A stretch of DNA of 31,324 bases from Candidatus Hydrogenedentota bacterium (GTDB lineage Bacteria; Hydrogenedentota; Hydrogenedentia; Hydrogenedentales; SLHB01), in assembly GCA_963668025.2 (NCBI GenBank), contig CAXXTH010000004.1:1-31324 (forward strand), written 5' to 3'. Below are positions 7,375 through 31,324 of the stretch, piece after piece. The notes under the pieces are model-generated. The model was given only the letters and a program-made list of their open reading frames with translations. It searched no databases and was not told the DNA's origin. Every line of letters starts with the position of its first letter. Position 1 is the stretch's first letter. A program made the translations under genes and the position numbers.

Positions 7375-7711
7375 GCCGCAAGCGGCGCTTTACTGCAAGT
7401 CTTAGGATATCTTTCTAAAATATAATATTATACATATTGTATTAATAAAATATCGTAACACTTTAACTGTTAACTTGGAGTTGAGCGCCACAGCTACGAT
7501 GAAAAACCATCTATTATCACACTCTCTTAATCTGCCGGAAAAGTATCTGTAACTAACCCATTTGATTTAAGTTCTTTTACAATTTCCCTAACATCATCAT
7601 CTTTGAGTTCAGACAGAAGGCATACTTTGTTGCCAATACCATTCATTGATGTGCCTATGACTAAGCCTTTTTTCCTATCTACTATCCAAAAGCGATCGTG
7701 AAACAAGTTAC

Positions 7712-9081: not shown

Positions 9082-9792
9082 CAAGTTACTTTGTTTCACG
9101 TCAATAATCAATGTTTTATTGATCTTCTTGAGTCCATTTTCTATCTCTTGTTGGAGTCCATCATTGTTTCCTATAACAAAGACTACTCTCTGAATGTGTT
9201 TCGCTGTGGTCGCAAGGATCTCTAGAACGCCATCTACATGATCGAGTTCTTTGCTGCGCGCAAAAAAATATGGGTCGGTGATTATCAGTTCTTTTTGTGC
9301 AGAGAGCCTGTCAAGATGATCTCTGACAAGTGATCTGAGCAACGATTTCGGTTGTCCGGGGCTTAAGACTTCTTCCATCAATATTGTAGATTCGCAATAA
9401 GGAACGCCATTAGCTTTTATATATTCCAATACTTTTATTCTTTTGTCGGACTCAGAATCCCATAGATTTCCCTGGTCAATCTCAACGTCCACAACATCAG
9501 TTTTTTTTGTTATTTGGTGAAGAATATCTGACAATTCTCTATCATTTGGATATATCAGCTTACATTTTGGGCTTTTAGTCATATTTCTTATCATCTTTCT
9601 AGCTTCCTTATGTCGTGTCTGCCTGCATCATAAATCTCGATATGAAATTCATTTTCAAGTGATAATATCACGTCTTTCTCTTACATAGGCATAAAAATAG
9701 TGGGTAGAACGTCCACGATCATGTACAATTCGAGATGCCACATCTCCCGATCCCGGCATCACTCCTGGAAACCAGAGACCCGAGCCCCGAAC

Positions 9793-11632: not shown

Positions 11633-11957
11633 GGGCTTGGACCCCGAGCACGCCGTTGATGGCCCCCACGAACTCCTGCCACTCCTCCCGCTTCTCCGCC
11701 AGCGCCTCACCGCCTTTGGCGGTGAGCCGGTAGTATTTCCTTCGCCGTCCCGACTCGAGTTCGACCCAATATGAATCGAGGAGCTTCGCCCGCTCCAACC
11801 GATGCAGGGCGGGATACAAGCTGCCCTCTTTCAGTTCAAAAATTCCCCGAGAACGTTCCAGCGTTTGCTGGGTGATCTCGTATCCATACGTCGGCCCCGT
11901 GCTGATCACTTGCAAGATCAACATTTCAACGGTGCCGCTGAGCAATTTGGAGTCCAT
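11619..11957 (-). CDS. PadR family transcriptional regulator
   Basis: GTVEMLIL, YGYEI, KEGSLYPALHRLE, RRRKYYRLT.KG; ATG at 11957 with purine-rich RBS. Confidence 0.95.
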   Translation of the reverse strand: MDSKLLSGTVEMLILQVISTGPTYGYEITQQTLERSRGIFELKEGSLYPALHRLERAKLLDSYWVELESGRRRKYYRLTAKGGEALAEKREEWQEFVGAINGVLGVQAHVMA

Positions 11958-17220: not shown

Positions 17221-19248
17221 TCACGCCTTGCATATGCTTGTCTGGGTTTGATGCGTTCCGATTCCGTGAGGGTTCATGGCGCACTCGTATAGGCCCACCC
17301 CATAGGCGGGCAGCGTGATGGAGCCGTTTTCCGGGGCGTTCCCGAGGAGCGCGGTGAGTCCGCCTGGCACGGCGGCTGTCCGCTCCGAATCATTGAAATT
17401 CATGAGAAAGAGATATTTTTGCTTGTCTTTTTCGCGCCAGGCCGCCTCCATGCCCTCGGGCAGTTCCATAAGCCCCTGTATTTCCGATTCTTCGAGAATC
17501 CGGCCGAGCAGGGCGTCATACAATGCCGGTTCGGCAAAGACGCCGAAGTAATACGCCGCGCCAGAGCCGTAATGATGCCGCGTGATGGCGGGTTCGCCAG
17601 TAAAGACGGAGCCTGCATGCCAGGCGATGGCGTCCGCACCATGAAGCTGCAACAAATCCGCCCAAACCGAGGTGGCGTATTTTTGCCCGCCGGCGGTTTG
17701 GATCGAGGATTCATCTTTCCCAAGGGCGTCATAATCGTCCACTTCGACACCCGCCAGTTCCCGTAATAAGGATGGCAGAGGCGCTTCGTAACAGGCATTG
17801 TCGGCATTCTTCACGCCGGTGCGCGGGCTGAGTATCAGCGTGCCGCCCTGCTGTACATAATCAATGAAGCAGGCGGCGTCTTCTGGCGTGAGGATATACC
17901 AGCTCGGCGCGATAACCAGCTTATAGGCATTCAGCCCCGCCGATAATGGGACCACGTCCACGTTCAAGCCGCGCGTTTGCAGGGCGCGATAATAATGGGC
18001 GGCTTGGTCCCAGATGCCCAAGCCTTCCGCCTGGGGCTGGATGTCCATGGCGAAATGCTGCTCATAAGCATTCACAATCGCCACCTCGCTGCGCGGGGCG
18101 GTGCCGTCCAGCATGGGGGCGAACTGCTGGATTTCCTTGCCGAATGCGGCGACTTCGCGGAATCTCCGGCGGGGAACCCCATCGTGGTTGATGACGCCAT
18201 GCCAGAACTGTTCCGTGCCGTAGCAGGCCGTCCGCCAGCGGAAAAAAACCACGGCGTCCGCGCCATGAGCGACAGCTTGCCATGCGGCGCATCGCAGCCA
18301 TTCGCCCGAGGGACGCCTGCCCATGGTGTTCCATCCGGTAATGCCGTTGATTTGCTCCATGACCCAGACGTTGCGCTGCTTGATGCCGCGCATAACATCG
18401 GCGGCGAGGGGGGAGCCGAAAGGCGATTCGCCCCAGGGCGTAATGGGGTAATTGTCCCACGAAACGAAATCGAGCTCTTTGCCCAATTCATAGCAATCCA
18501 AGGAATTATGCAGCCCCATCATGTTGTGTGTGATGAAGTGGCGTGGAGCGAGGCGGCGGAGCAGGGCGATTTGTTCGCGCTCGAAATCGATGGTTGCTTG
18601 GGATTGAAAGCGCCGGAATTCGAGTTGCAGCGACGGATTATGGAACACGCCGCCCTTCACATGCCACGGCAGCGGAATCTGCGCCCAATCCGAGTATTCC
18701 TGGCTCCAAAACGAGGCGCCCCATGCTTGATTGAGGGCGTCGAGGGTGTTGTATTTGCCCTGAAGCCATACGTGGAATTTCTCGTGGCAGATGGGGCAGT
18801 AGCAGAGGTTCGCGGACAATTCATTGTCGATTTGCCAGCCGACGACGGCGGGATGCTCCGCATACCGCCGCGCCATGGCCTCGATGATACGCTGTCCATA
18901 CGCCCGCATGTTGTCATTATTCAGGCAGCGCTGTTCGCGGATGCCGAAGCCCAGGCGGTATTTTCGCTGGTCCATTGGGTAGATGTCTGGATACCGGGCA
19001 TGCAGCCATGCGGGCGGCGTGGCGGTAGGCGTGCCCAAGACCGCTTGTATGCCGCCTTGATGCAGCAAATCGAGGATGCGGTCCAGCCACTCGAAAGCAT
19101 ACTGGCCTTCGGCGGGCTCCATGCGCGACCAGGCGAATTCGGCCATGCGGACAATAGAGACGCCTGCTTCGTTCATGAGGGCCACATCCGTGGGCCAGCA
19201 CGATTCCGAGCATTGCTCGGGGTAATAATCCGCACCGATTTGCAGCAT
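17221..19248 (-). CDS. Beta-galactosidase, glycoside hydrolase family 42
   Basis: GADYYPEQ, EFAWS.MEP.EG, WQIDNE (acid/base), CYC..C Zn motif, SWDNYP, WVMEQ (nucleophile), EQFWHG. Confidence 0.93.
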   Translation of the reverse strand: MLQIGADYYPEQCSESCWPTDVALMNEAGVSIVRMAEFAWSRMEPAEGQYAFEWLDRILDLLHQGGIQAVLGTPTATPPAWLHARYPDIYPMDQRKYRLGFGIREQRCLNNDNMRAYGQRIIEAMARRYAEHPAVVGWQIDNELSANLCYCPICHEKFHVWLQGKYNTLDALNQAWGASFWSQEYSDWAQIPLPWHVKGGVFHNPSLQLEFRRFQSQATIDFEREQIALLRRLAPRHFITHNMMGLHNSLDCYELGKELDFVSWDNYPITPWGESPFGSPLAADVMRGIKQRNVWVMEQINGITGWNTMGRRPSGEWLRCAAWQAVAHGADAVVFFRWRTACYGTEQFWHGVINHDGVPRRRFREVAAFGKEIQQFAPMLDGTAPRSEVAIVNAYEQHFAMDIQPQAEGLGIWDQAAHYYRALQTRGLNVDVVPLSAGLNAYKLVIAPSWYILTPEDAACFIDYVQQGGTLILSPRTGVKNADNACYEAPLPSLLRELAGVEVDDYDALGKDESSIQTAGGQKYATSVWADLLQLHGADAIAWHAGSVFTGEPAITRHHYGSGAAYYFGVFAEPALYDALLGRILEESEIQGLMELPEGMEAAWREKDKQKYLFLMNFNDSERTAAVPGGLTALLGNAPENGSITLPAYGVGLYECAMNPHGIGTHQTQTSICKA

Positions 19249-19286
19249 ATGCAACGCCTTCGCTTTCTATACATGCGCCCTGCGGT

Positions 19287-20300
19287 TTACAACGCGCGCA
19301 CGGATTCCCGTTCAATCAATTTGTGTTCAATGAGTTTTTCCAAATAACCTTGCCGCCCATTGCCATTGTTTAGGATATGCAAGAGCATTTCGGCCGCCGC
19401 CCGGCCGATTTCGCGTGGAAACACGGAGAGGGTGGTCAGCGGGGGGCCCATGACTTCGCCCATGTCGATCCCGTCGAAGCCCACGATGCTGATGTCATTG
19501 GGTATATGCATTCCCAATTGGTGGGCTGCTTTATAACAGCCAATCGCCACCAGGTCATTGCAGCATAATAGGGCCGTCGGCCGCGCCTTGGGATCGGAAA
19601 GCACTTCCATGGCGGCTTTGTATCCGTCTTCCGAAGTGTCGCCAGCCCGGACCGTCATGAAGTCATGAAACTCGACTTCGTGGGACACCAGGCTTTCGAT
19701 GAAGCCCATGATGCGTTCCTTAGCGGTCGCCGAGCGGACAGGCCCCGTGAGGCAGGTAATGCGCCGGTGGCCTTTGCTAATCAAATAATCGGTCGCGTCG
19801 CGGCTGCCTTGCCGGTTGTCGAAACGCACGGTATGGGTTTGGATTCCAGGCGCTTCCATGATCGTGACCACGGGCCGCTTCGATTCCACGAGATGGCGGA
19901 TATGTTTTTCGTATTGCTCCGCTTCACCGGCGGAGATGATGTAGCCGCGCAATTCATATTGCCCCAGCGCCTCGAATTCCTGCACGCCTTCCTCGGGACG
20001 ATCTTCCGTGCCATGGTGCAGCATGTGGTGGTAGCCATTCTGGCGCAGGACCGCATGAATTCCGGAGACCACTTCCGTATAGAAAGGATTATTAATGTTG
20101 CCAATGACCACGCCGATCATTTTAGAGACTTCACTGACCAACGACTTCTGGACGAGGCCCGTTTCATACCCGTGTTCGCGAATCGCCGCCCACACGCGCT
20201 CCCGAGTCTTTTCACTGACGCCAGGCTTGCCTTTGACGACAGCAAAGACCGTGGTGCGGGAAACGCCGCTTAATTCAGCTATATCTCTTGCGGTTACCAT
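19287..20300 (-). CDS. LacI family transcriptional regulator
   Basis: N-terminal TARDIAELSGVSRTTV HTH; NPFY, CNDLVAIG, IPNDISIVGFDG, LIERESV. Confidence 0.95.
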   Translation of the reverse strand: MVTARDIAELSGVSRTTVFAVVKGKPGVSEKTRERVWAAIREHGYETGLVQKSLVSEVSKMIGVVIGNINNPFYTEVVSGIHAVLRQNGYHHMLHHGTEDRPEEGVQEFEALGQYELRGYIISAGEAEQYEKHIRHLVESKRPVVTIMEAPGIQTHTVRFDNRQGSRDATDYLISKGHRRITCLTGPVRSATAKERIMGFIESLVSHEVEFHDFMTVRAGDTSEDGYKAAMEVLSDPKARPTALLCCNDLVAIGCYKAAHQLGMHIPNDISIVGFDGIDMGEVMGPPLTTLSVFPREIGRAAAEMLLHILNNGNGRQGYLEKLIEHKLIERESVRAL

Positions 20301-20759: not shown

Positions 20760-21740
20760 ATGAGCAAAACGGTAGGGCTAATACTGGTCTGTAGTGTGGC
20801 CGCTCTGTTAAGCGCGCCATCCGCGTTTGCAGGCACGGCGACTTTTGCGGGCTCCGTGAACGACACGGACGCCCAACTCGCAGGCACTTGGGTGGATTAT
20901 GAGCCGTATTACATTACGAATCCATGGCTTGGAACAAATCCGGGCGCGGAGGCGGATGGGGTCACGACCAATCTGACTACGTTGTGTGGTTCGAGGACCT
21001 TGGCGGATCTGGGCGCCATGACCATGGCTATCACCCAGCCCAATTGGGATTGGGCGGATTATTGGTGGGGCGCTTGGCTCGAAATTCACTTCACCGTTGT
21101 TGGGGAAGAGAAGATCACCGTGGGCATTGGCTCTCCTTATAACTGGGGCGATTATTATTGGGTATACATCCAGTTCGGCACAGATGATAGTACCCGGATT
21201 GGCTGGGATGAGGTCTATTTTGGCGGTGTGGGCAATGAACCCCTTGGCGTCCGCCTGGTGTCGGATGGCACGAATATTTCGCTGGAAGCGAGCTTGGACC
21301 GTGTTACATATACCGCGCTCACCGACGGGTCTTGGCCGATAAATGCCCTCCCCGAAATCGGTGATCTCAGTTCGCAAGTGTTGGATTGCGAAATCGCCGT
21401 GTATGGCCCCTGTGCGCCAGTCCGCAGTTTTTCCTGGACCGCTGCGACGGTTCCGGATTTGAATGGAACAAATGTCCTTGACGCCGATGAAGATGGTTTA
21501 AATGATAATGTGGAAACCGACACCGGCGTGTATGTGGACGCCAACAACACGGGCACGGATCCCTACATTGCGGATACGGATGGCGATGGCGTATCCGACG
21601 GTGATGAAGTGTCGCAAGGTTCGAGTCCGCTAGATCCGAATGATCCCGTGAACACGGTGCCCGTGGCGGGCCTGCTGGGCCTTGGATGCCTGGCTGCCGC
21701 CTGTCTGGCGGGTGGCGCACGCCTGTTGCGTAAAAAGTAA
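20760..21740 (+). CDS. Secreted/surface protein: Trp/Tyr-rich domain, TSP3-like Ca-binding repeats, C-terminal sorting tail
   Basis: Signal peptide ending AFA; DADEDGLND, GTDP..ADTDGDGVSDGDEV..GSSPLDPND; C-terminus VPVAG + hydrophobic helix + RLLRKK; AGGAGG RBS. Confidence 0.85.
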   Translation: MSKTVGLILVCSVAALLSAPSAFAGTATFAGSVNDTDAQLAGTWVDYEPYYITNPWLGTNPGAEADGVTTNLTTLCGSRTLADLGAMTMAITQPNWDWADYWWGAWLEIHFTVVGEEKITVGIGSPYNWGDYYWVYIQFGTDDSTRIGWDEVYFGGVGNEPLGVRLVSDGTNISLEASLDRVTYTALTDGSWPINALPEIGDLSSQVLDCEIAVYGPCAPVRSFSWTAATVPDLNGTNVLDADEDGLNDNVETDTGVYVDANNTGTDPYIADTDGDGVSDGDEVSQGSSPLDPNDPVNTVPVAGLLGLGCLAAACLAGGARLLRKK

Positions 21741-22055: not shown

Positions 22056-24716
22056 GTGGTTGTCCGACATATCAATACGAGGGCTGATGCGTTGGCGCAT
22101 GATAAGACACACCTGCCCGGCATAACCATCCGCTCGGTTGCAGCCATCCTCTTCGCCATGCTTCTCATGGCGGCCATGCTGGTTTTCGGAGAGACCATCG
22201 ACGGTACGGGATGGTTCTTCGGCATGCATATTCTTGCTATCCCCGCCATCGTAGGTTTCCTGATATTGGCCGCGCTCGCGGCGGGCGCGCACGGCCTGTT
22301 GCGGATTCGATTGCTTTCGCGGGCGGAAATGGCCTGCGCACTTTTTTGCCTGCTCACCGCCGCGCCGGTCATGGGATTGGGATTTTGGACGAATTTTATC
22401 TGGCTCAGCTCGACTATTCCGTCCCAAGGCGATTTTGAAAAACTCGATGCGGTGAACGATAAATTGTGGCCTCACGGCCCCAACCTGCTCGATGGGGCGT
22501 TTGCCCCCGATTCGCATGTGCTCGCCGCCAGCCCGGAAGGCATCGAGTGGCGGGAATCAACGGGAGATGATGGAAAGCAGGCCGTTCTTTCCGCACTCAT
22601 CAATAACGGTCCAGGCAGTGCTTCGTGGATACGGGTGCGCGTGCCGCTGGAGAAGGACGGAAAGGCCATCCTAACCACTGGCGAGCGGTATCTGCTGTGC
22701 ATACTGGGCCGTGGCTCGGATATGGGGCCGGACTCCGCTTTATACTGCCGCGCTTACTACGATGGCCATCCCGCTTTTGATGTCGAGGCGTTTACAGAGC
22801 CGCGCCCGATGTCGAAAACCACGGCGCTGCATCCCACGGGCTTTGTGCGGTATGGCGTGTATGGGCTCGAGTTCGCCTCTTCGATCCAGGAGTATGTGGA
22901 TATCGAGTTCCGGCTGGTGGGAGAGGGGGCGCTCGAACTGGCCGATCCCAAACTGATGTGTGTTTCCGCGTTCGAGCAGATTTTTACGGGCCGCCAATTG
23001 GTTCCTGAACAGGAATACCGGGCGCTACGCCCGAGCGAACAAGCCGCGTATGTCATGCAGCCGGATTCGCTCTGGAGTTGGGCGGGGTTTCAATCCATCG
23101 TATGCGGGCACATCCCCATTCAGCAATGGCGGCAGCCTGCATGCGCATGGCTGGGATTCATCCTGCTCCTGCTGCTGGCGACATTCGCCGTGGCCCTCAT
23201 CATGCGGCGCCAATGGGTGATGAACGAACGGTATCCGCTGCCTATTTCCCGTATCCCCGCCGCTTTGCTCGGGCTGGATTACGATGGCGCGGGGGCATTG
23301 CCGGGGATCTGGAAAAACCGCATGATGTGGCTGGGCTTCGGCGTGTGCTTCGCGTGGTGCCTGCTGCGCGCCTGGCATGAATACAATCCCAATGTGCCGA
23401 ACCTCGGCATCGGCGTGAAGCTCAAGCCCTACTTCGATTCGCCAAGCTGGGGCGGCATGTGGAACAGCGTCGAATTCAGTATCAGCGCCATCATTCTCAG
23501 CGTCGCGATATTCATGGAACTCAATATCCTCATGAGCCTGGTGATAGGCTTTTTCTTATACCGCTCCCTGTTTTGGCTGGGAGAAGCCACGGGGTGGAAC
23601 ATCGCCAGCGCGGGCAAATACGGCATCGGCTCGTATCCCTACGGGGCCGAGCAAATGATCTCCGCCTATCTCACCTACGCCGTCTTGACGCTGTTCTTCA
23701 CGCGCAAATACTTGTGGGGGACGCTCAAGAGTGTGTGTACAGCGCAGCCAAACGCGGGAGATTACGAATCGCGCCCGCCCCGCATGGCGTTTTTGTTGCT
23801 GCTCCTGGCATTTGTGGGCGCGGGGCTCTGGGGCGGCTGGGTGGGTGTCAAGCCGCAGGCCATGCTGGTTTTGTTTGGGGCGATGGTGCTGATCGGATTC
23901 GTCGCCATGAAGCTGCGGGCCGAATGCGGCACGCCGTTTGGCTGGTTCACGCCAGGTACGATCTTGCTGATCCCGTTACTGGGCGGCATGGCGTTTTTCG
24001 GCGCGCAAGGAACCATGTTTTCCTCCTGGACCTCGCTGGGCATGGCCATGCTCTTTATCATTCCAGGCCTGCAACTCGAGTTCATCGAGATCGCCCGGCG
24101 CGCGCATGTGCATCCGCGCCATGTCTTTTATACCGTGGCCCTGGGGATTACCGGCGGCATGCTCATTGGCGGATGGTTTTTTCTCTCGAGCATGTACGGC
24201 GTGGGCGCGAATAACTCGGGATTCGACTATTGGTTCACGGCCCGGCCTTGGGAGTTCTTCCCCTACGTCGAATACCAGCAGGCGGCCGATATGGCGTTGA
24301 ACGCTTCATCTGGATTGGCGGCGGAAGGTGCGGTTGCCGCCAAGAGCGGCGGAATCAATCCCTCCACCTGGGGCTACATCGGCGCGGCCATCGCGACTGC
24401 GGCCATCACGTTATTGCGCCAGGCATTCCCCGGATTCTGGCTCCACCCCATCGCGGTAGTGCTGGGCGCTACGGGAGATGGGCTGGGCATGATGATGTAT
24501 TGGTCCTTCAATTTATGGGGCAGCTTGCTCGCCGCGTGGGCCATACGGCTCACGGTGCTTAAAATAGGCGGTGCCCAAGCCGTGCGGACGAAATTATTCC
24601 CCTTTTTCATCGGCGTCTTCATTGCGGCGGTCGTGGCGCAAGCGCTCTTCTTCGGCTTGAATACATATCTGTATTTCTTTGACATCACGATAACCCGGCA
24701 GGATCTGTTGTTTTGA
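22056..24716 (+). CDS. Polytopic membrane protein, DUF6785/DUF6784-like (OPT-superfamily-like), with soluble insert
   Basis: Many hydrophobic segments; IMRRQW..NERYPLPI, KLRAECG.P, F.GFWLHPI, KIGG..A.R..PFFIG; start may be TTG at 22092 (GAGGG RBS); DUF names recalled, not searched. Confidence 0.75.
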   Translation: MVVRHINTRADALAHDKTHLPGITIRSVAAILFAMLLMAAMLVFGETIDGTGWFFGMHILAIPAIVGFLILAALAAGAHGLLRIRLLSRAEMACALFCLLTAAPVMGLGFWTNFIWLSSTIPSQGDFEKLDAVNDKLWPHGPNLLDGAFAPDSHVLAASPEGIEWRESTGDDGKQAVLSALINNGPGSASWIRVRVPLEKDGKAILTTGERYLLCILGRGSDMGPDSALYCRAYYDGHPAFDVEAFTEPRPMSKTTALHPTGFVRYGVYGLEFASSIQEYVDIEFRLVGEGALELADPKLMCVSAFEQIFTGRQLVPEQEYRALRPSEQAAYVMQPDSLWSWAGFQSIVCGHIPIQQWRQPACAWLGFILLLLLATFAVALIMRRQWVMNERYPLPISRIPAALLGLDYDGAGALPGIWKNRMMWLGFGVCFAWCLLRAWHEYNPNVPNLGIGVKLKPYFDSPSWGGMWNSVEFSISAIILSVAIFMELNILMSLVIGFFLYRSLFWLGEATGWNIASAGKYGIGSYPYGAEQMISAYLTYAVLTLFFTRKYLWGTLKSVCTAQPNAGDYESRPPRMAFLLLLLAFVGAGLWGGWVGVKPQAMLVLFGAMVLIGFVAMKLRAECGTPFGWFTPGTILLIPLLGGMAFFGAQGTMFSSWTSLGMAMLFIIPGLQLEFIEIARRAHVHPRHVFYTVALGITGGMLIGGWFFLSSMYGVGANNSGFDYWFTARPWEFFPYVEYQQAADMALNASSGLAAEGAVAAKSGGINPSTWGYIGAAIATAAITLLRQAFPGFWLHPIAVVLGATGDGLGMMMYWSFNLWGSLLAAWAIRLTVLKIGGAQAVRTKLFPFFIGVFIAAVVAQALFFGLNTYLYFFDITITRQDLLF

Positions 24717-27700
24717 ACCGGCATGGCGCAGTGCATCACCCGCGTATGGCCACCAGGCTGCTCACGAGCCTGGCGGCGGCGGCGTTCTTTTTGGCGTTGG
24801 CCTGGGCCACCGCCGTGATGATGCTCCGCGTGTTCGAGCCCAAGCCTCGCTTGGAGCCTATCGTCCCCTTTAAAGGGTACAGCCTGGACGCCATGCAGCG
24901 CGCGATAGCCCCTGAACGAGTCCAGGCGGAACTGGACCGTATCTTGGCGATGGGTTCGCGGTTCATGGGGCAGCCGGGATGCAGCCAGACGGCGGCCTAC
25001 ATTCGGGAGCGCTTCCAGCAAGCCGGGCTGGAAGTACACGAACAAACGTATCGGACCGCCGCGCCCCGCACCTTGCGGCGTGAAATATACGTGGAGGATG
25101 CTGCGGCGGGCGCTCCCGGATTCCGGAAGCCAGATCAGGCTGAGGTGTATCCCTTCTGGCCCAACCACATGCAGCCCATGAACACACCGCCGGAAGGGCT
25201 TGTAGGGGAATTGACGCTGGCCTCGGAGGATTTGCTCCACACGCGCGGCGATTTTTCGGACTGCATTGCACTCGTGGACGCCAGCAGCGGGCAAGTTCCA
25301 GAAAGCTGTGGTTTTGACTGGGCTTCGTATGCCGCCATGGGGTTCCGCGCGGTGATCATCGCGCATCCCGATGGACTGGAGGCCATGCCTTGGCCGCGCA
25401 TCATGGGCAATCGCGACAATCCGGCGGGGGGATTCATCAATGGCGGCATCCCCGTAAATTTCGTGCGCCTGGCGGCCACGCCGGGCATCTTCGCGCTGGC
25501 CGGACGCCGGATCAAGCTGTGCGTGAAAACCCGCTGGGAAAATGTCTTGAATACGTCCGTGTTCGGCATCCTGCATGCGGCGAAATCCGCCCACGAGGCG
25601 CTCGTGCTCGCATCCGACTATGATGCCTGCGCGATTCTCCCAGATTTGGCCCCCGGCGTCTTGCAAGCTTATGAGCCCGCTACCCAATTATGCCTGCTGG
25701 ATGGATTGCTCGAATACCGCCAATCGCTCCAGCGGGATATCGTGTTCGCCGCGTTTCCAGGACGCGCCATGTCGGACGACGGCGTGAACAACCTTCTCCG
25801 CGTGCTGGGCCCTAGCCGGGCCAGTGCGCAGGAGAATCGATTATTGGCGGCTTTCGGCAAAGGAATGCGTGAAGAGCCGGGCTCCATGGAATCACGGGAA
25901 AAAGCGCGGCTGGAAACACGCATGGCCCCCATTCAAACGCGCATGGAGCAGAATACAGCGCGGCTCGATATGCTCGGACGCCTTGACGAGGCTTTCCAAG
26001 ATCCGGACTTTTTCGTGGAGCCTTCTCGAACAGAAGCGGCCATCGAGGATGGGGACTCAGCCACTCGCGCATTCTTGACGGAACAATACCGGTATGTCCT
26101 TAGCACGCTCGTGTTTGAGCGGTCCGAAGAGGCGCTTCAGGCGAAACTCGCCTTCGAGCGGACGCCGGGCGCGCGCCTCGATGGCCCCGAGTTCCAGGCC
26201 TATTTAAAGGTGAAGCGGGAGTATGACGAGGCTCAATCGGCGACGGGATATGGGCTTTCCGGATTGCTGCGGGATAAGCAGGCCTACGCCGCGCGGTATG
26301 AGGTGCGCTCGCGGATGCGGGCGCGCTTCGAGGAATTGCTCGCGTATCACCAGGAGCGCCAGCAATCGTTTGAGCAAGACGCGGGCATTGTCCGCGCCTT
26401 AAATCCGTATAATGAATGGGTGGCGGTCCTGCCGGGATTCGCACCATCGAGCCGCCCCGGCGATGCCGCCGAAACGGCCAGTTTTTCCGGCGGCTCTTAT
26501 CTCATCCAAACACCGGAACGGGTGTTCGAGGCCCTTCTTGCGTCATCCCGCCAGCAAGCCGGGCTGGCGGGCGTCTTGAATCTCCCCAAGGTGGACCGCT
26601 GGCATGACGCGGCGGTGCAGCGGGAACTGGGTGCGATGACGCCGTATGGCCCCACGGACGCCTTCCGCGCTTACGGCTATCAAGCATTCCGGCTGGTGAA
26701 TTTCGGGCGTGCGGAATCGTATAACGATTTCAGCATACCGGCCGGGAAGCCCTACATGCGCAATGCGGAGTCGATGCGCCATTCGCTGCTGCTGGCGGGC
26801 GATGCGGCCTTGGCCCTGGCACACGGCGTGGGCCGGTTCCCGTCCTTGGTGGGCAATGCGTATGATTTTAAAGGCCGGGTGCTGGCGTCGAATGTCGGCC
26901 AGTCCGTTGTGCCAAATTATCCCCTTAAAAACGCCTTGCTCGGCACGCGCTCGAGAATGAATCCCGTGCAGTTCTCCGCGCCGGGCTATTTCGACATTCC
27001 CTTCGCATTCGCGGACCCCTATGGCCAATTTGATTTCTATAACAGTAGCGCCTCCAACCGCGCCTTTATCAATCTTCCGCTCAGCAAGGATGATGGAGTG
27101 GGCTATTCGCCGATGGCTTGCGCGTTTGGAGAAGACGGTCTGATCTCCTATATGAAAGATGAAGGCGAAGAAGGCCAGCGGCTGTTCAAGTCATCAGGCC
27201 TGCTCTGGAATGATCGCGAGCGGTTCCGGGATCTGACCATCATCACGTTCCGCAGTGCGCCCGTCACGATGCTGGACCTGGAAAATCCCCAAACCGGAAG
27301 CTTGTATGGATGGGTGGAACTGCTCGACCGCAACGGGCTGTCCCCGCTGGGCAAGCGATGCGCGTTCTCGCTTAAAAATGCGTTCACCACGTTTTGCACG
27401 CCGGACAAGCGGTTGTTTGTAGAATTGATGGCGGGTTCGCCGGAAAATCCGCTCGCCCTCACGACCCGCGCGTTCATGCTAGGCAATACAAATGGAGCGG
27501 ATGTTGATCCGAGGAAAGAGATCGATGGCTCGGGCTATCTGGCGGCGGACACGCATATCGTGCCGGATGTGCCCGCCCGGATTGCTGAGTCCATGGATTA
27601 TGTGAACGGCAAGCGTATCGCGTTGCTAAACCAGCACGGCATGGCGGATGAACGCGCGAATGAATACCAGCAAAAGGCGGAAGCCTTGTTCGCCAGCAGC

Positions 27701-29935
27701 CGCGAGCCAGGAAAGCCGTTCCATGAAGCGCGCATCGAAGCGCGCGATTCCGTGACGTATAACGAATTGAATCATCCGGTGCTGCGCCGCCAAATCTCGG
27801 AAGCGGTCATCGGTATTCTGTGGTATCTTGGGCTGCTTGTTCCATTCTGTTTCTTCTTCGAGAAGCTGGTCTTCGGTTATGCGGACGTACGCAAGCAGCT
27901 TGCCGCGCAAGCAGTCATCTTCTTAATCGTGTTTGGGTTGCTGCGGGTGTTCCATCCGGCTTTCGAGATGATCCGCTCCTCGCTGATGATCTTGCTTGGC
28001 TTTATCATCATCCTGGTTTCTTCGGGCGTCACGCTGCTCTTTTCGTCGAAGGCCAAGGAAAACTTGGAGGAAATACGCCGCCGCCAGGGGAAAGTGCGCG
28101 CGGCCGAGATCAATGTGCTTGGCGTGATGGCCACCGCGTTCTTGCTGGGGCTGAACAATATGCACCGACGACGGGTGCGGACGGGACTAACCTGTGGCAC
28201 GCTCGTGTTGATGACCTTTGTAGCGATTTGCTTCACCTCGGTTCAAACCGGCATCGTGGACGAAGCCATAGCGATCTCGAAAGCGCCCTATCCGGGCATT
28301 CTCGTTAAGAACAAGGATTTCGAGCCCCTTGATGCCGTATCGGGGATCGTGAATGAGTATAGCGGGCGCTATGCTCTGTGCGAACGGGAGATGTATCTGG
28401 GAGAACAGTACCAGGGCCAGTCGTACAATCCCTCGTTGCTGATCGCCTTCGAGCCGGAAGGCGCCCCCACGCGGAGCCTGCGTTTTAACTCGATTGTGAA
28501 GCTGGCCGCCGCGGAGCCTATGCAGCGCGAATTGAAATTCCTCACCCATACGCCGTGGTTCACGCCCGAACAGGAACGCGATTCCGGCGAGGCCTGCCCC
28601 GCGTTTATTCCAGACACGATTGCGCAGAAGCTAGGCATCACACCTGCGCGCGTCGAACAGGGTGATTGCATGGCCCGCATCAACGGGCGTGATTTCCGTA
28701 TTCAGGGCATTTTCTCGGCGGAATCGTACAACGCACTTCAAGACCTGGATGGCCAGCCGCTGCTTCCTTTCGACATCGAGGCAATGGCGAACGTGGCCGC
28801 CATGGAGAATAATGTCGTGCTGGCCAAGGACACCGATCCCCGCATTCCCGCGCAGCAGATCGTACTCTGCCCCGCGAAGCGCGACCTCCAGCTCCAACTG
28901 CAATATGGAAAACCGCGCCGGGTGTCCATGGCCATCAGCATGCCCCATGCGCCATATAAAGAAGCGAAGGCGGTGATCGATTCCTATCTCGAACGCAAAG
29001 CGGAACTGGTGTTCTATGGAATCAACGGCGTCGCGTATCGCGGCCAGCGCACCCGTGAGACCAGCATGGCGGGCATGATCGACCTGCTGCTGCCGCTGAT
29101 GATCGCCGCGCTGACCGTGCTGAACACCATGAAAGGCTCGGTGTACGAACGGCGGGATGAAATCATGGTGTATAACGCCGTGGGGATCGCTCCGCGCTAT
29201 GTGTTCTTCATGTTTTTAGCGGAGGCGGCGGTCTACAGCGTCGTCGGTTCGGTTCTCGGATATCTATTGAGCCAAGGGGCGGGGCGGATTTTGGCTTTCT
29301 GGGAAATCTCGGGCGGGATGTCCACGTCATTCACCTCGATCAATACGATCTACGCCTCGCTGGCCATCACCGCTGCTACATTTATATCCACCTATTTCCC
29401 TGCACGGTCGGCCATGCAAATCGCCACCCCCGCCGAAGAAGCCGGGTGGCGTTTGCCGGAGCCGGAAGGGGATGTGCTGCGGTTCCGGCTGCCCTTTACG
29501 TTTAGCGTGGAAGACCGCATCGCTATCATGGCCTTCTTCCACCGCTATCTTCAGGATCATGGCGAGGGAAGCGCGGAACGCTTTTTCGCCACGGGCCCGG
29601 AAATGGGGATCCGTGAGGAGTGCGATGCGTTGGCCGATGGCGCGTATATTCCGATGATCGCTTGTACGGTCTGGCTGAAGCCATTTGACCTGGCGGTGTC
29701 GCAAGAAATGTCCTTATCGGCGCCCACGGACGAAGAGACGGGCGAATATATCGCGGAGATCTCGCTTAAGCGCCTTTCCGGAACCCGTGAATCCTGGCTC
29801 CGCTTGAATGTGGGATTCGTGCGGCAAGTCCGGCGGCATTTATTGCATTGGCGCGCCGTCAGCTCAGAAGAACGAGCGGAGATGTTCGTCGAGGGAAAAG
29901 AGGCCATGGAACAATGCGTTACGTTAGCGCCCTGA
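24713..29935 (+). CDS. M28 peptidase-fold / MacB-FtsX-like permease fusion, 1740 aa
   Basis: N-terminal anchor, GSRFMGQPGC..A.YI, VLASDYD, DIVFAAF (M28 fold); TM cluster; NMHRRRVRTGLT (MacB-like first TM); SVYERRDEI.VYNAVG..FLAEA (FtsX signature); alternative ATG at 24746. Confidence 0.85.
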   Translation: MNRHGAVHHPRMATRLLTSLAAAAFFLALAWATAVMMLRVFEPKPRLEPIVPFKGYSLDAMQRAIAPERVQAELDRILAMGSRFMGQPGCSQTAAYIRERFQQAGLEVHEQTYRTAAPRTLRREIYVEDAAAGAPGFRKPDQAEVYPFWPNHMQPMNTPPEGLVGELTLASEDLLHTRGDFSDCIALVDASSGQVPESCGFDWASYAAMGFRAVIIAHPDGLEAMPWPRIMGNRDNPAGGFINGGIPVNFVRLAATPGIFALAGRRIKLCVKTRWENVLNTSVFGILHAAKSAHEALVLASDYDACAILPDLAPGVLQAYEPATQLCLLDGLLEYRQSLQRDIVFAAFPGRAMSDDGVNNLLRVLGPSRASAQENRLLAAFGKGMREEPGSMESREKARLETRMAPIQTRMEQNTARLDMLGRLDEAFQDPDFFVEPSRTEAAIEDGDSATRAFLTEQYRYVLSTLVFERSEEALQAKLAFERTPGARLDGPEFQAYLKVKREYDEAQSATGYGLSGLLRDKQAYAARYEVRSRMRARFEELLAYHQERQQSFEQDAGIVRALNPYNEWVAVLPGFAPSSRPGDAAETASFSGGSYLIQTPERVFEALLASSRQQAGLAGVLNLPKVDRWHDAAVQRELGAMTPYGPTDAFRAYGYQAFRLVNFGRAESYNDFSIPAGKPYMRNAESMRHSLLLAGDAALALAHGVGRFPSLVGNAYDFKGRVLASNVGQSVVPNYPLKNALLGTRSRMNPVQFSAPGYFDIPFAFADPYGQFDFYNSSASNRAFINLPLSKDDGVGYSPMACAFGEDGLISYMKDEGEEGQRLFKSSGLLWNDRERFRDLTIITFRSAPVTMLDLENPQTGSLYGWVELLDRNGLSPLGKRCAFSLKNAFTTFCTPDKRLFVELMAGSPENPLALTTRAFMLGNTNGADVDPRKEIDGSGYLAADTHIVPDVPARIAESMDYVNGKRIALLNQHGMADERANEYQQKAEALFASSREPGKPFHEARIEARDSVTYNELNHPVLRRQISEAVIGILWYLGLLVPFCFFFEKLVFGYADVRKQLAAQAVIFLIVFGLLRVFHPAFEMIRSSLMILLGFIIILVSSGVTLLFSSKAKENLEEIRRRQGKVRAAEINVLGVMATAFLLGLNNMHRRRVRTGLTCGTLVLMTFVAICFTSVQTGIVDEAIAISKAPYPGILVKNKDFEPLDAVSGIVNEYSGRYALCEREMYLGEQYQGQSYNPSLLIAFEPEGAPTRSLRFNSIVKLAAAEPMQRELKFLTHTPWFTPEQERDSGEACPAFIPDTIAQKLGITPARVEQGDCMARINGRDFRIQGIFSAESYNALQDLDGQPLLPFDIEAMANVAAMENNVVLAKDTDPRIPAQQIVLCPAKRDLQLQLQYGKPRRVSMAISMPHAPYKEAKAVIDSYLERKAELVFYGINGVAYRGQRTRETSMAGMIDLLLPLMIAALTVLNTMKGSVYERRDEIMVYNAVGIAPRYVFFMFLAEAAVYSVVGSVLGYLLSQGAGRILAFWEISGGMSTSFTSINTIYASLAITAATFISTYFPARSAMQIATPAEEAGWRLPEPEGDVLRFRLPFTFSVEDRIAIMAFFHRYLQDHGEGSAERFFATGPEMGIREECDALADGAYIPMIACTVWLKPFDLAVSQEMSLSAPTDEETGEYIAEISLKRLSGTRESWLRLNVGFVRQVRRHLLHWRAVSSEERAEMFVEGKEAMEQCVTLAP

Positions 29936-29944
29936 GGCAACCGC

Positions 29945-31324
29945 ATGCGTAAGATGGATAACGATATCGAAACGTACAGGGAAATCCTCCAGCCCGCATC
30001 GGAATACAAGGACGGGTTCGGATGGAACACCGTCGTGGGGATATTTTTCTGCGGCCTCATCATGATGCCGGGCGGCATCTATTTAGGATTGATGACAGGC
30101 GGAAACCTCGGCCCAGCGGCTTCGTGGGTGACGGTGATCCTGTTCATGGAGATCGCCCGGCGGGCCATGAAGCCCATGTCGAAGCAGCACCTGGTGATTC
30201 TGCTTCATGCGGCGTCCATCATGATGATAGCCAATGTCTTGATGCCCGGCGGGCCGCTCGGGTGGCTCGTGTACCGCGCGTATCTAACGGGGAGCGACGC
30301 GGTCCGGGACGCCGGAATGGCGGGCGCTTTTCCCAAATGGTTCTGCCCGCCCCCAGACAGCCCCGCGATTTTGGACCGGACGTTTTTCCACAAGGATTGG
30401 CTGATTCCGCTGGGCCTGGTGCTGTTTGGCATGGCCACGGAACTCGTGTCGAAATACAGTCTTGGCTATGTATTCTTCCGCCTCACCTCCGATATCGAAA
30501 AGCTGCCATTCCCACTGGCTACGGTGAGCGCGCAGGGCGCGATGGCCTTGGCGGAAGCGGATGCGTCGAAAACAGAGGAGGGCGAAAAAGCCGCTCCGGC
30601 CAAACAGAAGAGCCTGCGTTGGCGCATCTTTTCCTTCGGGGCGACGCTGGGCCTGGTCTTCGGCATGCTGCAAGTGGGCATTCCCACGATCACGGGATTG
30701 TTCTTGTCCAAACCGTTCTACCTCATCCCGTCGCCGTTCGTGGACACGACAGTGCTTACGGAATCCTTGCTGCCCGCCACGGCCACGGGCATGGCGGTCG
30801 ATCTCGGCATCGTGCTTCTCGGATTCGTGCTGCCGTTTTGGGCTGTCATGGGCACGTTCACCGCCATCGTGCTGACGGCCATTCTCAATCCGGTGCTATA
30901 CCATTATGGCGTATTGCATACCTGGCAGCCCGGCATGGATACCGTGAATACTACCTTCTCCGCCAACATGGATTTCTGGCTGAGTTTTGGCATCGGCTCC
31001 GGCCTGGGCATCACGCTGGTGTGCCTGTTTTCGACATTCCGCGATATCCGCTCCCAATGGCGGGCCGTGGCCTTGCGCCGGAAAACACAGCCGGAAACGC
31101 GGGATTTATGGGCGGCTCCAAATACCGGGCGCGGCGATTGCCCCATCTGGCTGGCGATAGCCGCATATGGCCTGGCGTCAACCGCTTTGATTATTATTTG
31201 CTATATCGTGCTGCCTAAATCAATCAGCATCTTGTTCTTTCTGATCTTTTTCGCTTTCGGCTTTACGCCGCTAATCACCTACGTCAATGCCCGGCTGCTT
31301 GGTATCGCGGGACAATGGGTCGAG
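29945..31324 (+). CDS. OPT-superfamily-like membrane transporter (3' truncated; absent from the ORF track)
   Basis: Open frame from ATG 29945 to the window end (460 codons): MRKMDNDIETYREIL..DGFGWNTVVGIFFCGLIMMPGGIYLGLMTG..AASWVTVILFMEIARR..SDIEKLPFPLA; many TM segments. Confidence 0.85.
   Translation, partial: MRKMDNDIETYREILQPASEYKDGFGWNTVVGIFFCGLIMMPGGIYLGLMTGGNLGPAASWVTVILFMEIARRAMKPMSKQHLVILLHAASIMMIANVLMPGGPLGWLVYRAYLTGSDAVRDAGMAGAFPKWFCPPPDSPAILDRTFFHKDWLIPLGLVLFGMATELVSKYSLGYVFFRLTSDIEKLPFPLATVSAQGAMALAEADASKTEEGEKAAPAKQKSLRWRIFSFGATLGLVFGMLQVGIPTITGLFLSKPFYLIPSPFVDTTVLTESLLPATATGMAVDLGIVLLGFVLPFWAVMGTFTAIVLTAILNPVLYHYGVLHTWQPGMDTVNTTFSANMDFWLSFGIGSGLGITLVCLFSTFRDIRSQWRAVALRRKTQPETRDLWAAPNTGRGDCPIWLAIAAYGLASTALIIICYIVLPKSISILFFLIFFAFGFTPLITYVNARLLGIAGQWVE

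Follow-up and report, generated by a model that had tools for sequence, protein, structure and literature searches.

A widely conserved bacterial operon predicted to couple a MacB/Lol-type motor and a receptor domain with two transporter-fold proteins

The three large membrane-protein genes at the end of this Hydrogenedentota contig form the start of a larger conserved operon, the remainder of which lies beyond the contig end. They represent a widely conserved but unstudied bacterial machine, in which a MacB/Lol-type motor with a receptor domain is combined with two transporter-fold proteins; a literature search found no published characterisation of the system, in agreement with the original prediction that the combination lacked experimental work. 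Our preferred reading, tentative and at a little under even chances, is ATP-assisted uptake of an oligomeric nutrient, which could be a sugar chain or a peptide.

Locus layout

The analysed stretch of 31,324 nucleotides (the window; Table 1) is the entire contig G000:C4, and gene 3 is therefore incomplete: its orthologues measure 690–700 aa, so that about one third of W3 is absent from the window. In public run X1 the contig DNA extends at least 3.1 kb past the window end. The tight coupling of the three genes, as first described, can be read directly from the sequence. Genes 1 and 2 overlap by 4 bp (TTG at 24713 against TGA at 24714–24716), which presupposes the TTG start of gene 2, the in-frame GTG at 24731 or ATG at 24746 giving instead a gap of at most 29 bp; genes 2 and 3 are separated by 9 bp (stop at 29933–29935, ATG at 29945), with a GAGG 7 nt 5′ of the gene 3 ATG. 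Farther upstream, beyond the regulator and the β-galactosidase, the Pfam scan placed GDSL/Big_9/Laminin_G and beta-helix proteins.

Table 1. Features of the window and of the proteins W1 to W3
Feature	Position	Strand	Basis and remarks
GH42 beta-galactosidase	17221..19254	-	Pfam Glyco_hydro_42, 42M, 42C; downstream of LacI; context
LacI-family regulator	19287..20300	-	Pfam LacI + Peripla_BP; divergent from operon side; context, regulation putative
Gene 1 (W1)	22056..24716	+	ORF, 886 aa
W1 insertion, residues 113-352	22392..23111	+	240 residues, after third helix
Gene 2 (W2)	24713..29935	+	ORF and translation, 1740 aa
W2 ectodomain, residues 43-1026	24839..27790	+	periplasmic; predicted PA/M28 fold, helical domain and beta-rich domain
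W2 three-helix membrane bundle, residues 1018-1125	27764..28087	+	hydropathy
W2 MacB/LolC-type module, residues about 1155-1570	28175..29422	+	Pfam, NCBIfam and PDB sequence matches, hydropathy
W2 cytoplasmic C-terminal domain, residues 1575-1740	29435..29932	+	many invariant residues (W-type alignment)
Gene 3 (W3)	29945..31324	+	ORF, 460 aa, 3′ end open at contig end

The three window proteins

Gene 1 encodes a polytopic DUF6785/DUF6784 membrane protein that is a distant homologue of gene 3 within the OPT-fold superfamily. W1 scores 178 bits against Pfam DUF6785 (cut-off 25) and 30.6 bits against DUF6784 (cut-off 26.4), the Atlas clusters for gene 1 carry the label ‘DUF6784/DUF6785’ at 0.97, and alignment of the gene-3 profile with the gene-1 profile by hhalign covers 400 columns with a probability of 89% and an E-value of 2.4e-6. 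Its long insertion, predicted to be periplasmic by the positive-inside rule, is confined in the gene-1 alignment to the long (W-type) form, namely P0001 and two W-type relatives, and is kept in 54 further W-type loci; it matched nothing in Pfam or among PDB sequences. A CBM_4_9 look-alike score of 0.80 for this insertion is a lead only, and the carbohydrate-binding identity found no confirmation in those same searches.

Gene 2 encodes a giant anchor/receptor/FtsX protein, whose homologues of 1650–1830 aa occur in many phyla under the source name ‘ABC transporter permease’. An anchor helix is followed by the ectodomain, a three-helix bundle, the FtsX module and a cytoplasmic tail. The AF2 model of the ectodomain (pLDDT 90.6, pTM 0.91) retrieves the aminopeptidase PaAP (8ACK) as the top Foldseek match in the PDB at 5e-14, with 2EK8, BSAP 6HC6, transferrin receptor 1DE4 and GCPII also matching, all at probability 1.0. 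Judged from this model, the outer domain of about 980 residues has a PA/M28 aminopeptidase-like (transferrin-receptor/GCPII-like) fold; its sequence similarity to PA/M28 peptidases is marginal (E 0.004–0.44). In the profile alignment with 2EK8, which is weak, W2 has neither the metal-ligand His nor the Glu-Glu pair, and the ectodomain thus appears to be an inactive peptidase-like domain devoid of catalytic residues. The membrane bundle that follows is the most conserved part of the protein, with a mean column identity of 78% over 31 sequences and invariant charged or polar residues inside it; considered as a possible relative of FtsX TM2-4, it proved unrelated (hhalign probability 0.9%). By hydropathy the MacB/LolC-type module consists of one TM helix, a periplasmic domain of about 265 residues and three TM helices. 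Residues 1462–1570 match Pfam FtsX (E 4.8e-14), NCBIfam contributes partial MacB, FtsX and LolC matches, and among PDB sequences MacB 5GKO is found at 1.6e-8 together with YtrF and LolC. The C-terminal domain matches no Pfam family.

Gene 3 is the most conserved of the three across 41 of 41 loci, the median identities to the window proteins being 38.8% for gene 1, 42.6% for gene 2 and 55.0% for gene 3. W3 is cut by the contig end; the fold was assessed on P0004, a full-length orthologue with 62% identity to W3. The P0004 model (pLDDT 78, pTM 0.79) has a sole Foldseek match in the PDB, barley HvYS1 (7WST/7WSR; E 2.6e-10 and 2.6e-9, TM 0.56/0.63), at only 13–14% identity, and the model thus assigns the gene-3 family to the OPT/Yellow-Stripe transporter fold. 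At the sequence level gene 3 has no match in the PDB even with a profile, PF03169 matches none of the window proteins, and a precomputed PF03169 match exists for 3 of the 120 listed gene-3 homologues. The OPT-like and M28-fold assignments made originally from the letters are accordingly borne out by structure prediction and Foldseek, though Pfam is blind to both in the window proteins.

Conservation and the putative downstream motor

The conserved gene order anticipated for this cluster was recovered: of the 51 related loci for which 3 kb or more of upstream sequence is available, 50 have gene 1, and of the 56 with 2.5 kb or more on the downstream side, 49 have gene 3. The order is repeated across many phyla with overlapping or near-abutting frames, and is the same in three other subtypes of the family. 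Downstream sequence of 5.5 kb or more is available for 41 W-type loci; gene 3 occurs in 37 of these, and in 35 it is joined by an FtsX-like subunit of about 350 aa and an ATPase; the ATPases number two in 34, and 4 loci contain neither gene 3 nor motor inside 10 kb. A PqqD-like gene accompanies the two ATPases in 29 of 38 loci, lying between them in 28, and all four proteins tested matched Pfam PqqD, three of them above the cut-off. An ABC ATPase and small accessory genes, which the original prediction proposed to look for downstream, are thus found in relatives. Of the two closest, G035 carries the gene-3 end, then FtsX, ATPase, PqqD-like and ATPase genes, and L142 has a gene 3 that is 77% identical, with an FtsX-like gene 19 bp after it. 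The two ATPases both retain Walker A, LSGGQ, Walker B and the H-loop. The nearest named families of the operon ATPases are LolD, MacB, YbbA and FtsE, with the FtsX and ATPase matches to equivalog models all falling far below cut-offs.

The system looks modular, with variable genes 1 and 2 and a conserved gene 3 plus motor that is sometimes placed elsewhere. Several divergent copies of the system occur per genome. Four genomes have a stand-alone gene 1-2 pair, and each holds exactly one gene 3 elsewhere, followed by FtsX and ATPase genes, a second ATPase in three of the four and a PqqD gene in one. No gene 1 or 2 was found upstream of these detached loci, although the sequence available on that side is shorter than 10 kb in three of them and under 2 kb in two of those three. 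The gene-2 copies per gene 3 in the four split genomes are 3 (plus a fragment), 2, 2 and 1, the sharing of one engine being deduced from gene counts in incomplete MAGs.

Genomic context and substrate

Apart from the PqqD-like gene, no flanking family occurs in more than 4 of 80 loci, and a LacI HTH was found in none of the 98 nearest-neighbour ORFs. The LacI/GH42 adjacency is kept in neither of the two relatives with upstream sequence, G035 and G056. The CAZyme/LacI linkage, an enrichment that the original prediction expected, is therefore not general. In Sumerlaeota, in a Puniceicoccaceae MAG and in this window the operon does border on sugar-sensing regulators and cytoplasmic glycoside hydrolases or phosphorylases; the enzymes in several lineages are GH130, GH94, GH2 or GH42, and relatives are accompanied by GntR/Peripla_BP_3 regulators, a GH2 beta-galactosidase, GH130 and GH94. 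Given these neighbours, the substrate may still be a glycan, as first proposed. The folds (OPT, dead aminopeptidase, PqqD) hint at a peptide, the context of several lineages points to a sugar, and the two disagree.

Proposed mechanism and its rivals

In the uptake reading, a type VII ABC motor would be built from the gene 2 FtsX module together with the small FtsX subunit and both ATPases, and its ATP-driven movements would be relayed to the periplasmic receptor domain of gene 2. Genes 1 and 2, which vary, would provide a capture and channel module specific for the substrate; gene 3 and the motor would be the conserved engine able to serve several gene 1-2 pairs, and an oligomeric nutrient (oligosaccharide or peptide) would pass from the periplasm through the OPT-fold proteins. 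Capture followed by translocation, part of the original proposal, is likewise something we infer. Import as the direction is suggested by the flank survey, which showed no recurrent membrane-fusion or outer-membrane-channel gene next to the operon, by the sugar-sensing regulators and cytoplasmic glycoside hydrolases of several lineages, by the several divergent copies per genome, and by the characterised OPT members (family TC 2.A.67), which are importers. Against it counts that, to our knowledge and in the part of the literature available to us, the characterised type VII ABC systems all work at the periplasm or outer leaflet, where they extract or expel substrates or activate enzymes; importers are not among them.

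That precedent feeds a fairly unlikely alternative, an envelope-maintenance or export machine whose motor acts on material already in the periplasm or membrane, for instance hydrophobic or lipid-linked molecules, pieces of the cell wall or exported peptides. In this view a regulated or holding role would fall to the pseudo-peptidase domain, and the OPT-fold proteins would act as exporters or flippases or serve purely as a scaffold. The families nearest to the FtsX module and the ATPases are MacB, LolC/LolD, FtsE and YbbA, and the named type VII systems (MacB, LolCDE, FtsEX, YbbAP-TesA), as far as the available sources describe them, work that way; a paralogous copy in the same genome lies among the housekeeping genes PhoH, YbeY, CorC and DUF502, and three related loci adjoin YceG(MltG), RuvX and AlaS, likewise housekeeping contexts. 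PqqD-type proteins bind peptides bound for modification or export, which also fits. However, beside the missing adaptor and channel genes, the flank survey found no recurring precursor peptide or modifying enzyme, divergent copies with variable receptors on one engine fit nutrient specificity better, and several lineages have sugar-catabolic neighbours. An improbable variant would restrict the system to uptake or processing of oligopeptides, with the dead aminopeptidase domain holding peptide N-termini, the OPT-fold proteins carrying peptides, and the PqqD-like protein binding them in the cytoplasm for hand-over or feedback on the ATPases. Three independent peptide-type folds (OPT, PA/M28, PqqD) and the name ‘peptide transporter’ given by sources to gene-3 homologues speak for it; yet such names are automatic, no peptidase or peptide-catabolic gene recurs nearby in the flank survey, and the transferrin receptor is an example of a dead M28/PA domain with a role other than peptide binding. 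It also overlaps the uptake reading, whose substrate is an oligosaccharide or a peptide.

The machine originally predicted, a self-sufficient three-protein secondary importer of galactose-containing glycans under LacI control that lacks an ATPase, with M28/MacB domains for glycan capture and the OPT pair for translocation, is now very improbable. LacI and GH42 genes do lie divergently upstream, and with 17 LacI HTH matches in the 6.1-Mb genome (the window regulator among them) chance adjacency would amount to a few per cent; as originally stated, no conventional sugar importer was found on the 31-kb contig, since of the 17 main window ORFs scanned, 4 of which matched no family, none matched a SusC/D, MalFG-type, MFS or PTS family; relatives are adjoined by the glycosidases, phosphorylases and regulators listed above, and variants without an adjacent ATPase exist (type B; 4 of 41 loci). 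Set against this are the FtsX and ATPase genes of the 35 loci and of both closest relatives, the DNA continuing beyond the window, the LacI/GH42 adjacency not being kept in G035 or G056, the peptide-type folds and the unconfirmed carbohydrate-binding lead. The window has no ATPase because it ends too early. Least probable of all is that the genes are neighbours with separate functions and no common complex. Gene 3 and the motor are sometimes apart from genes 1 and 2, and a weak search found no fused forms of the genes; but many phyla show this same arrangement of genes, with frames that overlap or nearly abut, three other subtypes keep the order too, and genomes that split the operon still keep both halves.

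Several observations count against the uptake reading as well. Gene 3 of G056 has an unrelated ABC exporter behind it, with the motor on a different contig; four of the 41 loci have neither gene 3 nor motor within 10 kb; the fetched flanks of ten same-order three-gene or partial relatives (type B) gave no FtsX or ATPase match; and the flanks are otherwise unrelated. Besides the lack of an ATPase in the window, no W-type FtsX or ATPase was found on the other contigs of G000, and about 50 BPD_transp_1 matches in this genome imply that conventional ABC importers are present.

Comparison with known systems

Type VII ABC systems (MacAB-TolC, LolCDE, FtsEX-EnvC, YbbAP-TesA) show the same FtsX-type four-helix module, in which TM1 and TM2 flank a periplasmic domain, and the separate FtsX-like subunit and two LolD/MacB/FtsE-like ATPases of the relatives resemble the LolC/LolE/LolD2 layout. 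FtsEX-EnvC and YbbAP-TesA, from the available part of their description, likewise place a periplasmic enzyme-like element on the motor. By contrast, W2 adds an anchor helix, the 980-residue PA/M28-like ectodomain, the unrelated three-helix bundle and a cytoplasmic tail, the operon also encodes two OPT-fold proteins and a PqqD-like protein, and no adaptor or outer-membrane partner recurs beside it. With OPT/Yellow-Stripe-like transporters (PF03169; barley YS1, PDB 7WSR/7WST) the gene-3 family has the fold in common, but known OPT proteins work alone as secondary carriers and those considered here come as two distant paralogues linked to a putative ABC motor. W2 shares the protease-like M28 domain, the inserted PA domain and the helical domain with transferrin receptor, GCPII and the aminopeptidases PaAP, BSAP and 2EK8. 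Its catalytic residues seem to be lost, as in the transferrin receptor, and by this analogy it would be a binding domain; unlike all of them, it is fused into a polytopic ABC-type membrane protein and is much larger, with extra helical and beta-rich domains. Although membrane, energy source and folds all differ, TonB-ExbBD offers a functional analogy, with one energy module per genome and several variable receptor modules, much as the gene-2 to gene-3 ratios of 3:1, 2:1 and 2:1 in three MAGs suggest for a putatively shared engine.

Layout of the gene cluster

The three co-directional open reading frames that occupy the last 9.3 kb of the window appear to belong to a type VII ABC machine whose partner proteins are without precedent, a system that joins two transporter classes with no known joint action. 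Gene 1 (W1, protein P0001) encodes a DUF6785/DUF6784 membrane protein, gene 2 (W2, P0002) a giant membrane protein, and gene 3 (W3, P0003) a membrane protein cut by the contig end. Read directly from the sequence, the TTG start of gene 2 overlaps the TGA stop of gene 1 by 4 bp, with AGGA nine bases upstream, and a 9-bp gap containing GAGG separates the gene 2 stop from the gene 3 ATG, the same tight coupling of three genes that the original prediction had described. Were gene 2 to begin at one of the alternative in-frame starts, GTG 24731 or ATG 24746, the gap to gene 1 would be at most 29 bp.

The window is one complete contig of a 6.1-Mb assembly in 24 contigs (G000), and gene 3 is shortened by assembly, not by biology. 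A 9602-nt contig of the public sequencing run X1 matches window positions 27000-31324 without a difference and continues about 3.1 kb past the window end. Searches of the other G000 contigs (tblastn, with genes 3-5 of a paralogous locus as queries) recovered neither the rest of gene 3 nor any FtsX or ATPase gene of the long, W-type subtype to which the window system belongs. In another run, X3, the contigs are broken at several points within gene 2 and have loose ends; related strains or paralogues may have confused that assembly.

Promoter and terminator scans upstream of the LacI/GH42 genes and of gene 1 brought up a single feature, a GC-rich 11-bp stem-loop with a T-poor tail that lies past the TSP3-repeat gene, 70 nt upstream of gene 1, and might serve as a terminator or as a regulatory hairpin. 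Inverted- and direct-repeat scans of these upstream regions yielded no convincing LacI-type operator shared between them. Farther away, two reading frames of 628 and 629 aa match no Pfam family and are mutually dissimilar, and the first is overlapped by a 422-aa reading frame on the plus strand.

Coordinates of the features discussed (window positions unless another contig, a locus or gene 2 residues are named)
Feature	Position	Strand	Remark
Gene 1 (W1)	22056-24716	+	886 aa
Gene 2 (W2)	24713-29935	+	1740 aa
Gene 3 (W3)	29945-31324	+	460 aa; open at contig end
TSP3-repeat protein	20760-21740	+	between LacI and gene 1
LacI-family regulator and GH42 beta-galactosidase	upstream of gene 1	opposite	
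GDSL/Big_9/Laminin_G, beta-helix and DUF1559 proteins	upstream of LacI/GH42		
Stem-loop	21960-21984		
Reading frame without Pfam family	7708-9594	-	628 aa
Reading frame without Pfam family	9793-11682	-	629 aa
Gene 1 insertion	22392-23111		240 residues
Gene 2 helix	residues 12-42		hydropathy
Gene 2 outer domain			980 residues; hydropathy
Gene 2 three helices	residues 1027-1115		then short cytoplasmic linker; hydropathy
Gene 2 helix	residues 1155-1183		then ~265-residue outer loop; hydropathy
Gene 2 three further helices	residues 1449 to about 1570		then 165-residue tail; hydropathy
Gene 2 three-helix bundle, conserved stretch	27764-28087		residues 1018-1125
Gene 2 cytoplasmic tail	29435-29932		
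Paralogous five-gene copy	G000:C10:1304143-1314442		locus L002 8144-18446
Sumerlaeota synteny	L083 6229-7239		
Sumerlaeota synteny	L118 3278-4231		
Sumerlaeota synteny	L077 1439-2623		
Sumerlaeota synteny	L097 5861-7090		
Sumerlaeota synteny	L062 3749-4948		
IS200-like transposase gene	L044 7011-7457		G002:C35
Further subtype	L036 (G056:C18:6000-25999)		

Architecture of the gene 2 protein

The last four-helix unit of the gene 2 protein is an FtsX domain (PF02687 at residues 1462-1570, E 4.8e-14), matched in the PDB by chains of MacB, YtrF and LolC. Taken with the hydropathy profile, these matches show the type VII ABC topology of TM1, a periplasmic domain and TM2-4; in this class, ATP-driven movement is transmitted mechanically to the periplasmic domain.

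The outer domain, modelled from 61 sequences with a pLDDT of 90.6 and a pTM of 0.91, is predicted to have an M28/PA fold. Foldseek retrieved PaAP, the M28 aminopeptidase 2EK8, BSAP, the transferrin receptor and GCPII at E 5e-14 to 1e-10, bearing out the M28 fold that had been proposed for gene 2. Pfam searches matched the M28 family (PF04389) neither in P0002 nor in its ectodomain, and assigned no family to the ectodomain, to a sub-piece of it or to the C-terminal tail. The two-zinc ligand set and catalytic glutamate of M28 enzymes are spread over the motifs H-x-D, D, E-E, D/E and H. In a weak profile alignment to 2EK8, which covers the first three motifs only and is not significant alone (E 0.44), the first zinc-ligand His is replaced in P0002 by Asp, at a position that varies within the family, and the catalytic/ligand Glu-Glu pair by Arg-Ala, which suggests that the ectodomain may be a dead peptidase.

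Conservation in gene 2 peaks in its three-helix bundle, where the mean column identity is 78% and where Glu, Lys, Asp, Gln and His are invariant, and an Arg nearly so, at positions within or close to the membrane; the bundle may provide a docking site or a path for ions. The 165-residue cytoplasmic tail is strongly conserved across phyla, again without a Pfam family. The idea that gene 2 holds two FtsX units in tandem was discarded, the bundle being unlike FtsX TM2-4.

Genes 1 and 3 as a predicted OPT-fold pair

Gene 1 scores above the Pfam gathering cut-off for both DUF6785 (178.1 bits, cut-off 25) and DUF6784 (30.6 bits, cut-off 26.4), and is placed in the same families by Atlas clusters, whereas the gene 3 protein matches neither of them, nor any other Pfam or NCBIfam family. 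Since the window copy of gene 3 is without about a third of its length, its fold was modelled on P0004, a full-length orthologue from the same order that is 62% identical, using a 34-sequence alignment (pLDDT 78, pTM 0.79). The only significant PDB matches of this model were to barley Yellow Stripe 1, HvYS1 (7WST and 7WSR; E 2.6e-10 and 2.6e-9; TM 0.56/0.63), the next following at E 0.03 and TM 0.1, and the gene 3 family is thus predicted to share the fold of a solved OPT/Yellow-Stripe member. Members of this class (TC 2.A.67) import oligopeptides or metal chelates by proton coupling. A profile-profile comparison of the gene 3 and gene 1 families by hhalign gave a probability of 89% and E 2.4e-6 over 400 columns, and it is solely through this link that gene 1 would be tied to the OPT fold.

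The two "OPT-like" proteins of the original prediction are therefore correctly named as far as fold and remote homology go, given the HvYS1 match and the profile link, but not by the standard of the Pfam OPT model (PF03169), which neither P0001 nor P0003 matches at E <= 1 and the full-length gene 3 orthologue likewise does not match. Sequence-only PDB searches returned nothing for P0001, the gene 3 orthologue or the gene 3 profile. As weak evidence, no fused gene 3 form occurred among the longer proteins.

In its long form, gene 1 is extended by an insertion of 240 residues, probably periplasmic, to which a Pfam search assigned no family. Its look-alikes in the Atlas are CBM_4_9 clusters only, at a weak score of 0.80; none of the 55 members matches a CBM family in Pfam, and the insertion profile has no PDB match. 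A carbohydrate-binding module here is an unconfirmed lead.

A putative motor encoded downstream in relatives

The family is large: one gene 3 query found at least 810 proteins at E <= 1e-5 among 8000 candidates scored, ranging over Hydrogenedentota, Sumerlaeota, Verrucomicrobiota, Kiritimatiellia, Lentisphaerota, Planctomycetota, Myxococcota and others. A scan taking one genome per species collected 80 W-type loci from many phyla, in which the three genes recur as had been anticipated, gene 1 being present in 50 of the 51 loci with at least 3 kb of upstream sequence and gene 3 in 49 of the 56 with at least 2.5 kb downstream.

No ATPase gene lies in the window, which ends with its contig. Of the 41 W-type loci that extend 5.5 kb or more downstream, 37 carry gene 3, 35 have gene 3 together with an FtsX-like protein of roughly 350 aa and an ATPase, and 34 have two ATPases. 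These ATPases are nearest to LolD, MacB, YbbA and FtsE and keep all catalytic motifs. A PqqD-like gene of about 140 codons accompanies 29 of 38 two-ATPase loci, lying between the ATPases in 28; all four tested match Pfam PqqD, three above cut-off.

The two closest relatives of the window system both continue into the FtsX-like gene. In G035, a genome of the same family whose gene 2 is 53-63% and gene 3 76% identical to the window, a single contig runs from the gene 3 C-terminus through FtsX, ATPase, PqqD-like and ATPase genes; on the metagenome contig L142 (gene 3 77% identical), the FtsX-like gene follows gene 3 by 19 bp. An exception is the related genome G056, where an unrelated ABC exporter follows gene 3 and the FtsX-ATPase-ATPase block lies on another contig.

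A proposed variable and a proposed conserved module

Genes 1 and 2 stand alone at four loci for which 10 kb of sequence downstream was available. Each of these four genomes carries exactly one gene 3 elsewhere, followed by FtsX and ATPase genes, with a second ATPase in three of the four and PqqD in one, and with no gene 1 or gene 2 upstream (9.6 kb seen in two loci, less than 2 kb in the other two). Their gene 2 copies number 3 (plus a fragment), 2, 2 and 1; since the genomes are MAGs, these counts are lower bounds, possibly distorted by missing contigs. Across 41 three-gene loci, the median identity to the window proteins is 38.8% for gene 1, 42.6% for gene 2 and 55.0% for gene 3, and gene 3 is the most conserved of the three in every locus. 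Given the split genomes, the gene 2 counts and this gradient, genes 1 and 2 would form a variable module, and gene 3 with its motor a conserved module that may be shared.

Genomic neighbourhood

The original prediction had also expected a conserved linkage to carbohydrate-active enzymes and sugar regulators, and this was not found. The nearest-neighbour survey took in 98 reading frames (50 upstream, 48 downstream) at 80 loci, at E <= 1e-12. By raw counts, five belong to glycoside hydrolase or phosphorylase families (GH130 twice, GH94, GH116 and GH2), two are GntR/Peripla_BP_3 regulators, two ROK proteins, two sulfatases and one a fucose isomerase; none carries a LacI HTH, and the remainder are unrelated or without family assignment. 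Apart from the operon's own PqqD-like gene, no flanking family is shared by more than four loci out of 80.

Within Sumerlaeota only, the linkage is real. There, the operon is preceded by DUF2961 and a GntR/Peripla_BP_3 regulator, and at two of the loci also by a GH130 phosphorylase, the GH130 stop abutting gene 1 by -4 and +2 bp; the loci are kin and so amount to about one event. Mixed neighbours are likewise seen at loci of other subtypes from the same taxonomic order as the window, some of them GH families, and three of these loci lie beside YceG-RuvX-AlaS. With 17 LacI HTH matches in the G000 genome, the LacI gene beside the window operon is unlikely to be there by chance, and with about 50 BPD_transp_1 matches the organism is not short of ordinary sugar ABC importers.

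Possible uptake or envelope role

Folds, gene order, the ATPase module of relatives, the split arrangement and the conservation gradient are the grounded parts of the picture, onto which a mechanism can be sketched. The FtsX module of gene 2, the small FtsX subunit and the two ATPases would pair as in LolC/LolE/LolD2, ATP-driven movement would be transmitted to the transferrin-receptor-like domain, genes 1 and 3 would supply the membrane path, and transport would run inward. The inward direction is the tentative element, and we give uptake somewhat less than an even chance. It is favoured by the known direction of OPT carriers, which work as importers, by the lack of adaptor or outer-membrane partner genes in the 80-locus flank survey, by the several divergent copies per genome and by catabolic genes that adjoin the operon in some lineages. 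The record of the ABC class itself speaks against it, since no type VII ABC system is known to import. The same record would suit a role in the envelope or in export, which we consider rather unlikely. As to the substrate, the folds point to peptides, the OPT fold, the aminopeptidase-like receptor and PqqD all being peptide-handling, and sources label gene 3 homologues "peptide transporter", whereas the sugar-type hints of the neighbourhood point the other way.

A fuller proposal, speculative and improbable as a whole, would be a new modular hybrid inner-membrane importer, in which type VII mechanotransmission drives the uptake of oligosaccharides or peptides and several gene 1-2 modules work on one shared engine. 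Its receptor-plus-channel module would consist of gene 1 (OPT-fold) and gene 2 (an FtsX base bearing a transferrin-receptor-like ectodomain), its engine of the OPT-fold gene 3 protein, the small FtsX subunit, the two ATPases and PqqD, and its carriers would be PVC-type bacteria, Sumerlaeota, Hydrogenedentota and related diderms.

Should the machine turn out to be an importer, it would be the first type VII ABC system with that function, and bacterial OPT-fold proteins would gain a role. A full-text literature search, with subscription journals outside its reach, found no publication on the system, in agreement with the earlier statement that no experimental characterisation of this combination was known. 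The system may bear on how oligomers enter polymer degraders of the Planctomycetota type. A "selfish" uptake mechanism was reported in 2024 for fucoidan-degrading Planctomycetota, in a paper that treats transporters as optional in defining utilisation loci (PMC11685898). A hybrid importer, if true, could be the missing import route for "selfish" polymer uptake without SusCD.

Subtypes and paralogues

Of 61 genomes from the same taxonomic order, G000 among them, 22 have a giant-gene match at E <= 1e-30. The fetched same-order loci include a five-gene form with FtsX and ATPase genes and a three-gene form with no FtsX or ATPase match within the fetched flanks; the W-type form is also found in G035, G056 and, as a fragment, the related genome G002. 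G000 itself has a paralogous five-gene copy on contig C10, directly after PhoH, 7TM-HD, YbeY, two CorC/CNNM genes and DUF502. Its genes follow the window order, with a DUF6785/6784 protein of 669 aa, a giant of 1547 aa and a third protein of 728 aa that are 22-39% identical to those of the window, then a 228-aa FtsX protein and one ABC ATPase. The giant of this copy has a weak partial Pfam M28 match (30 bits, residues 245-317).

At a three-gene relative in G002 (L044), an IS200-like (Y1_Tnp) transposase gene separates genes 1 and 2. A further subtype, in G056, combines a 725-aa DUF6785-like protein, a 1741-aa giant and a 664-aa third protein with a 222-aa FtsX protein and two ATPases, and this genome carries at least three or four systems of the same family.
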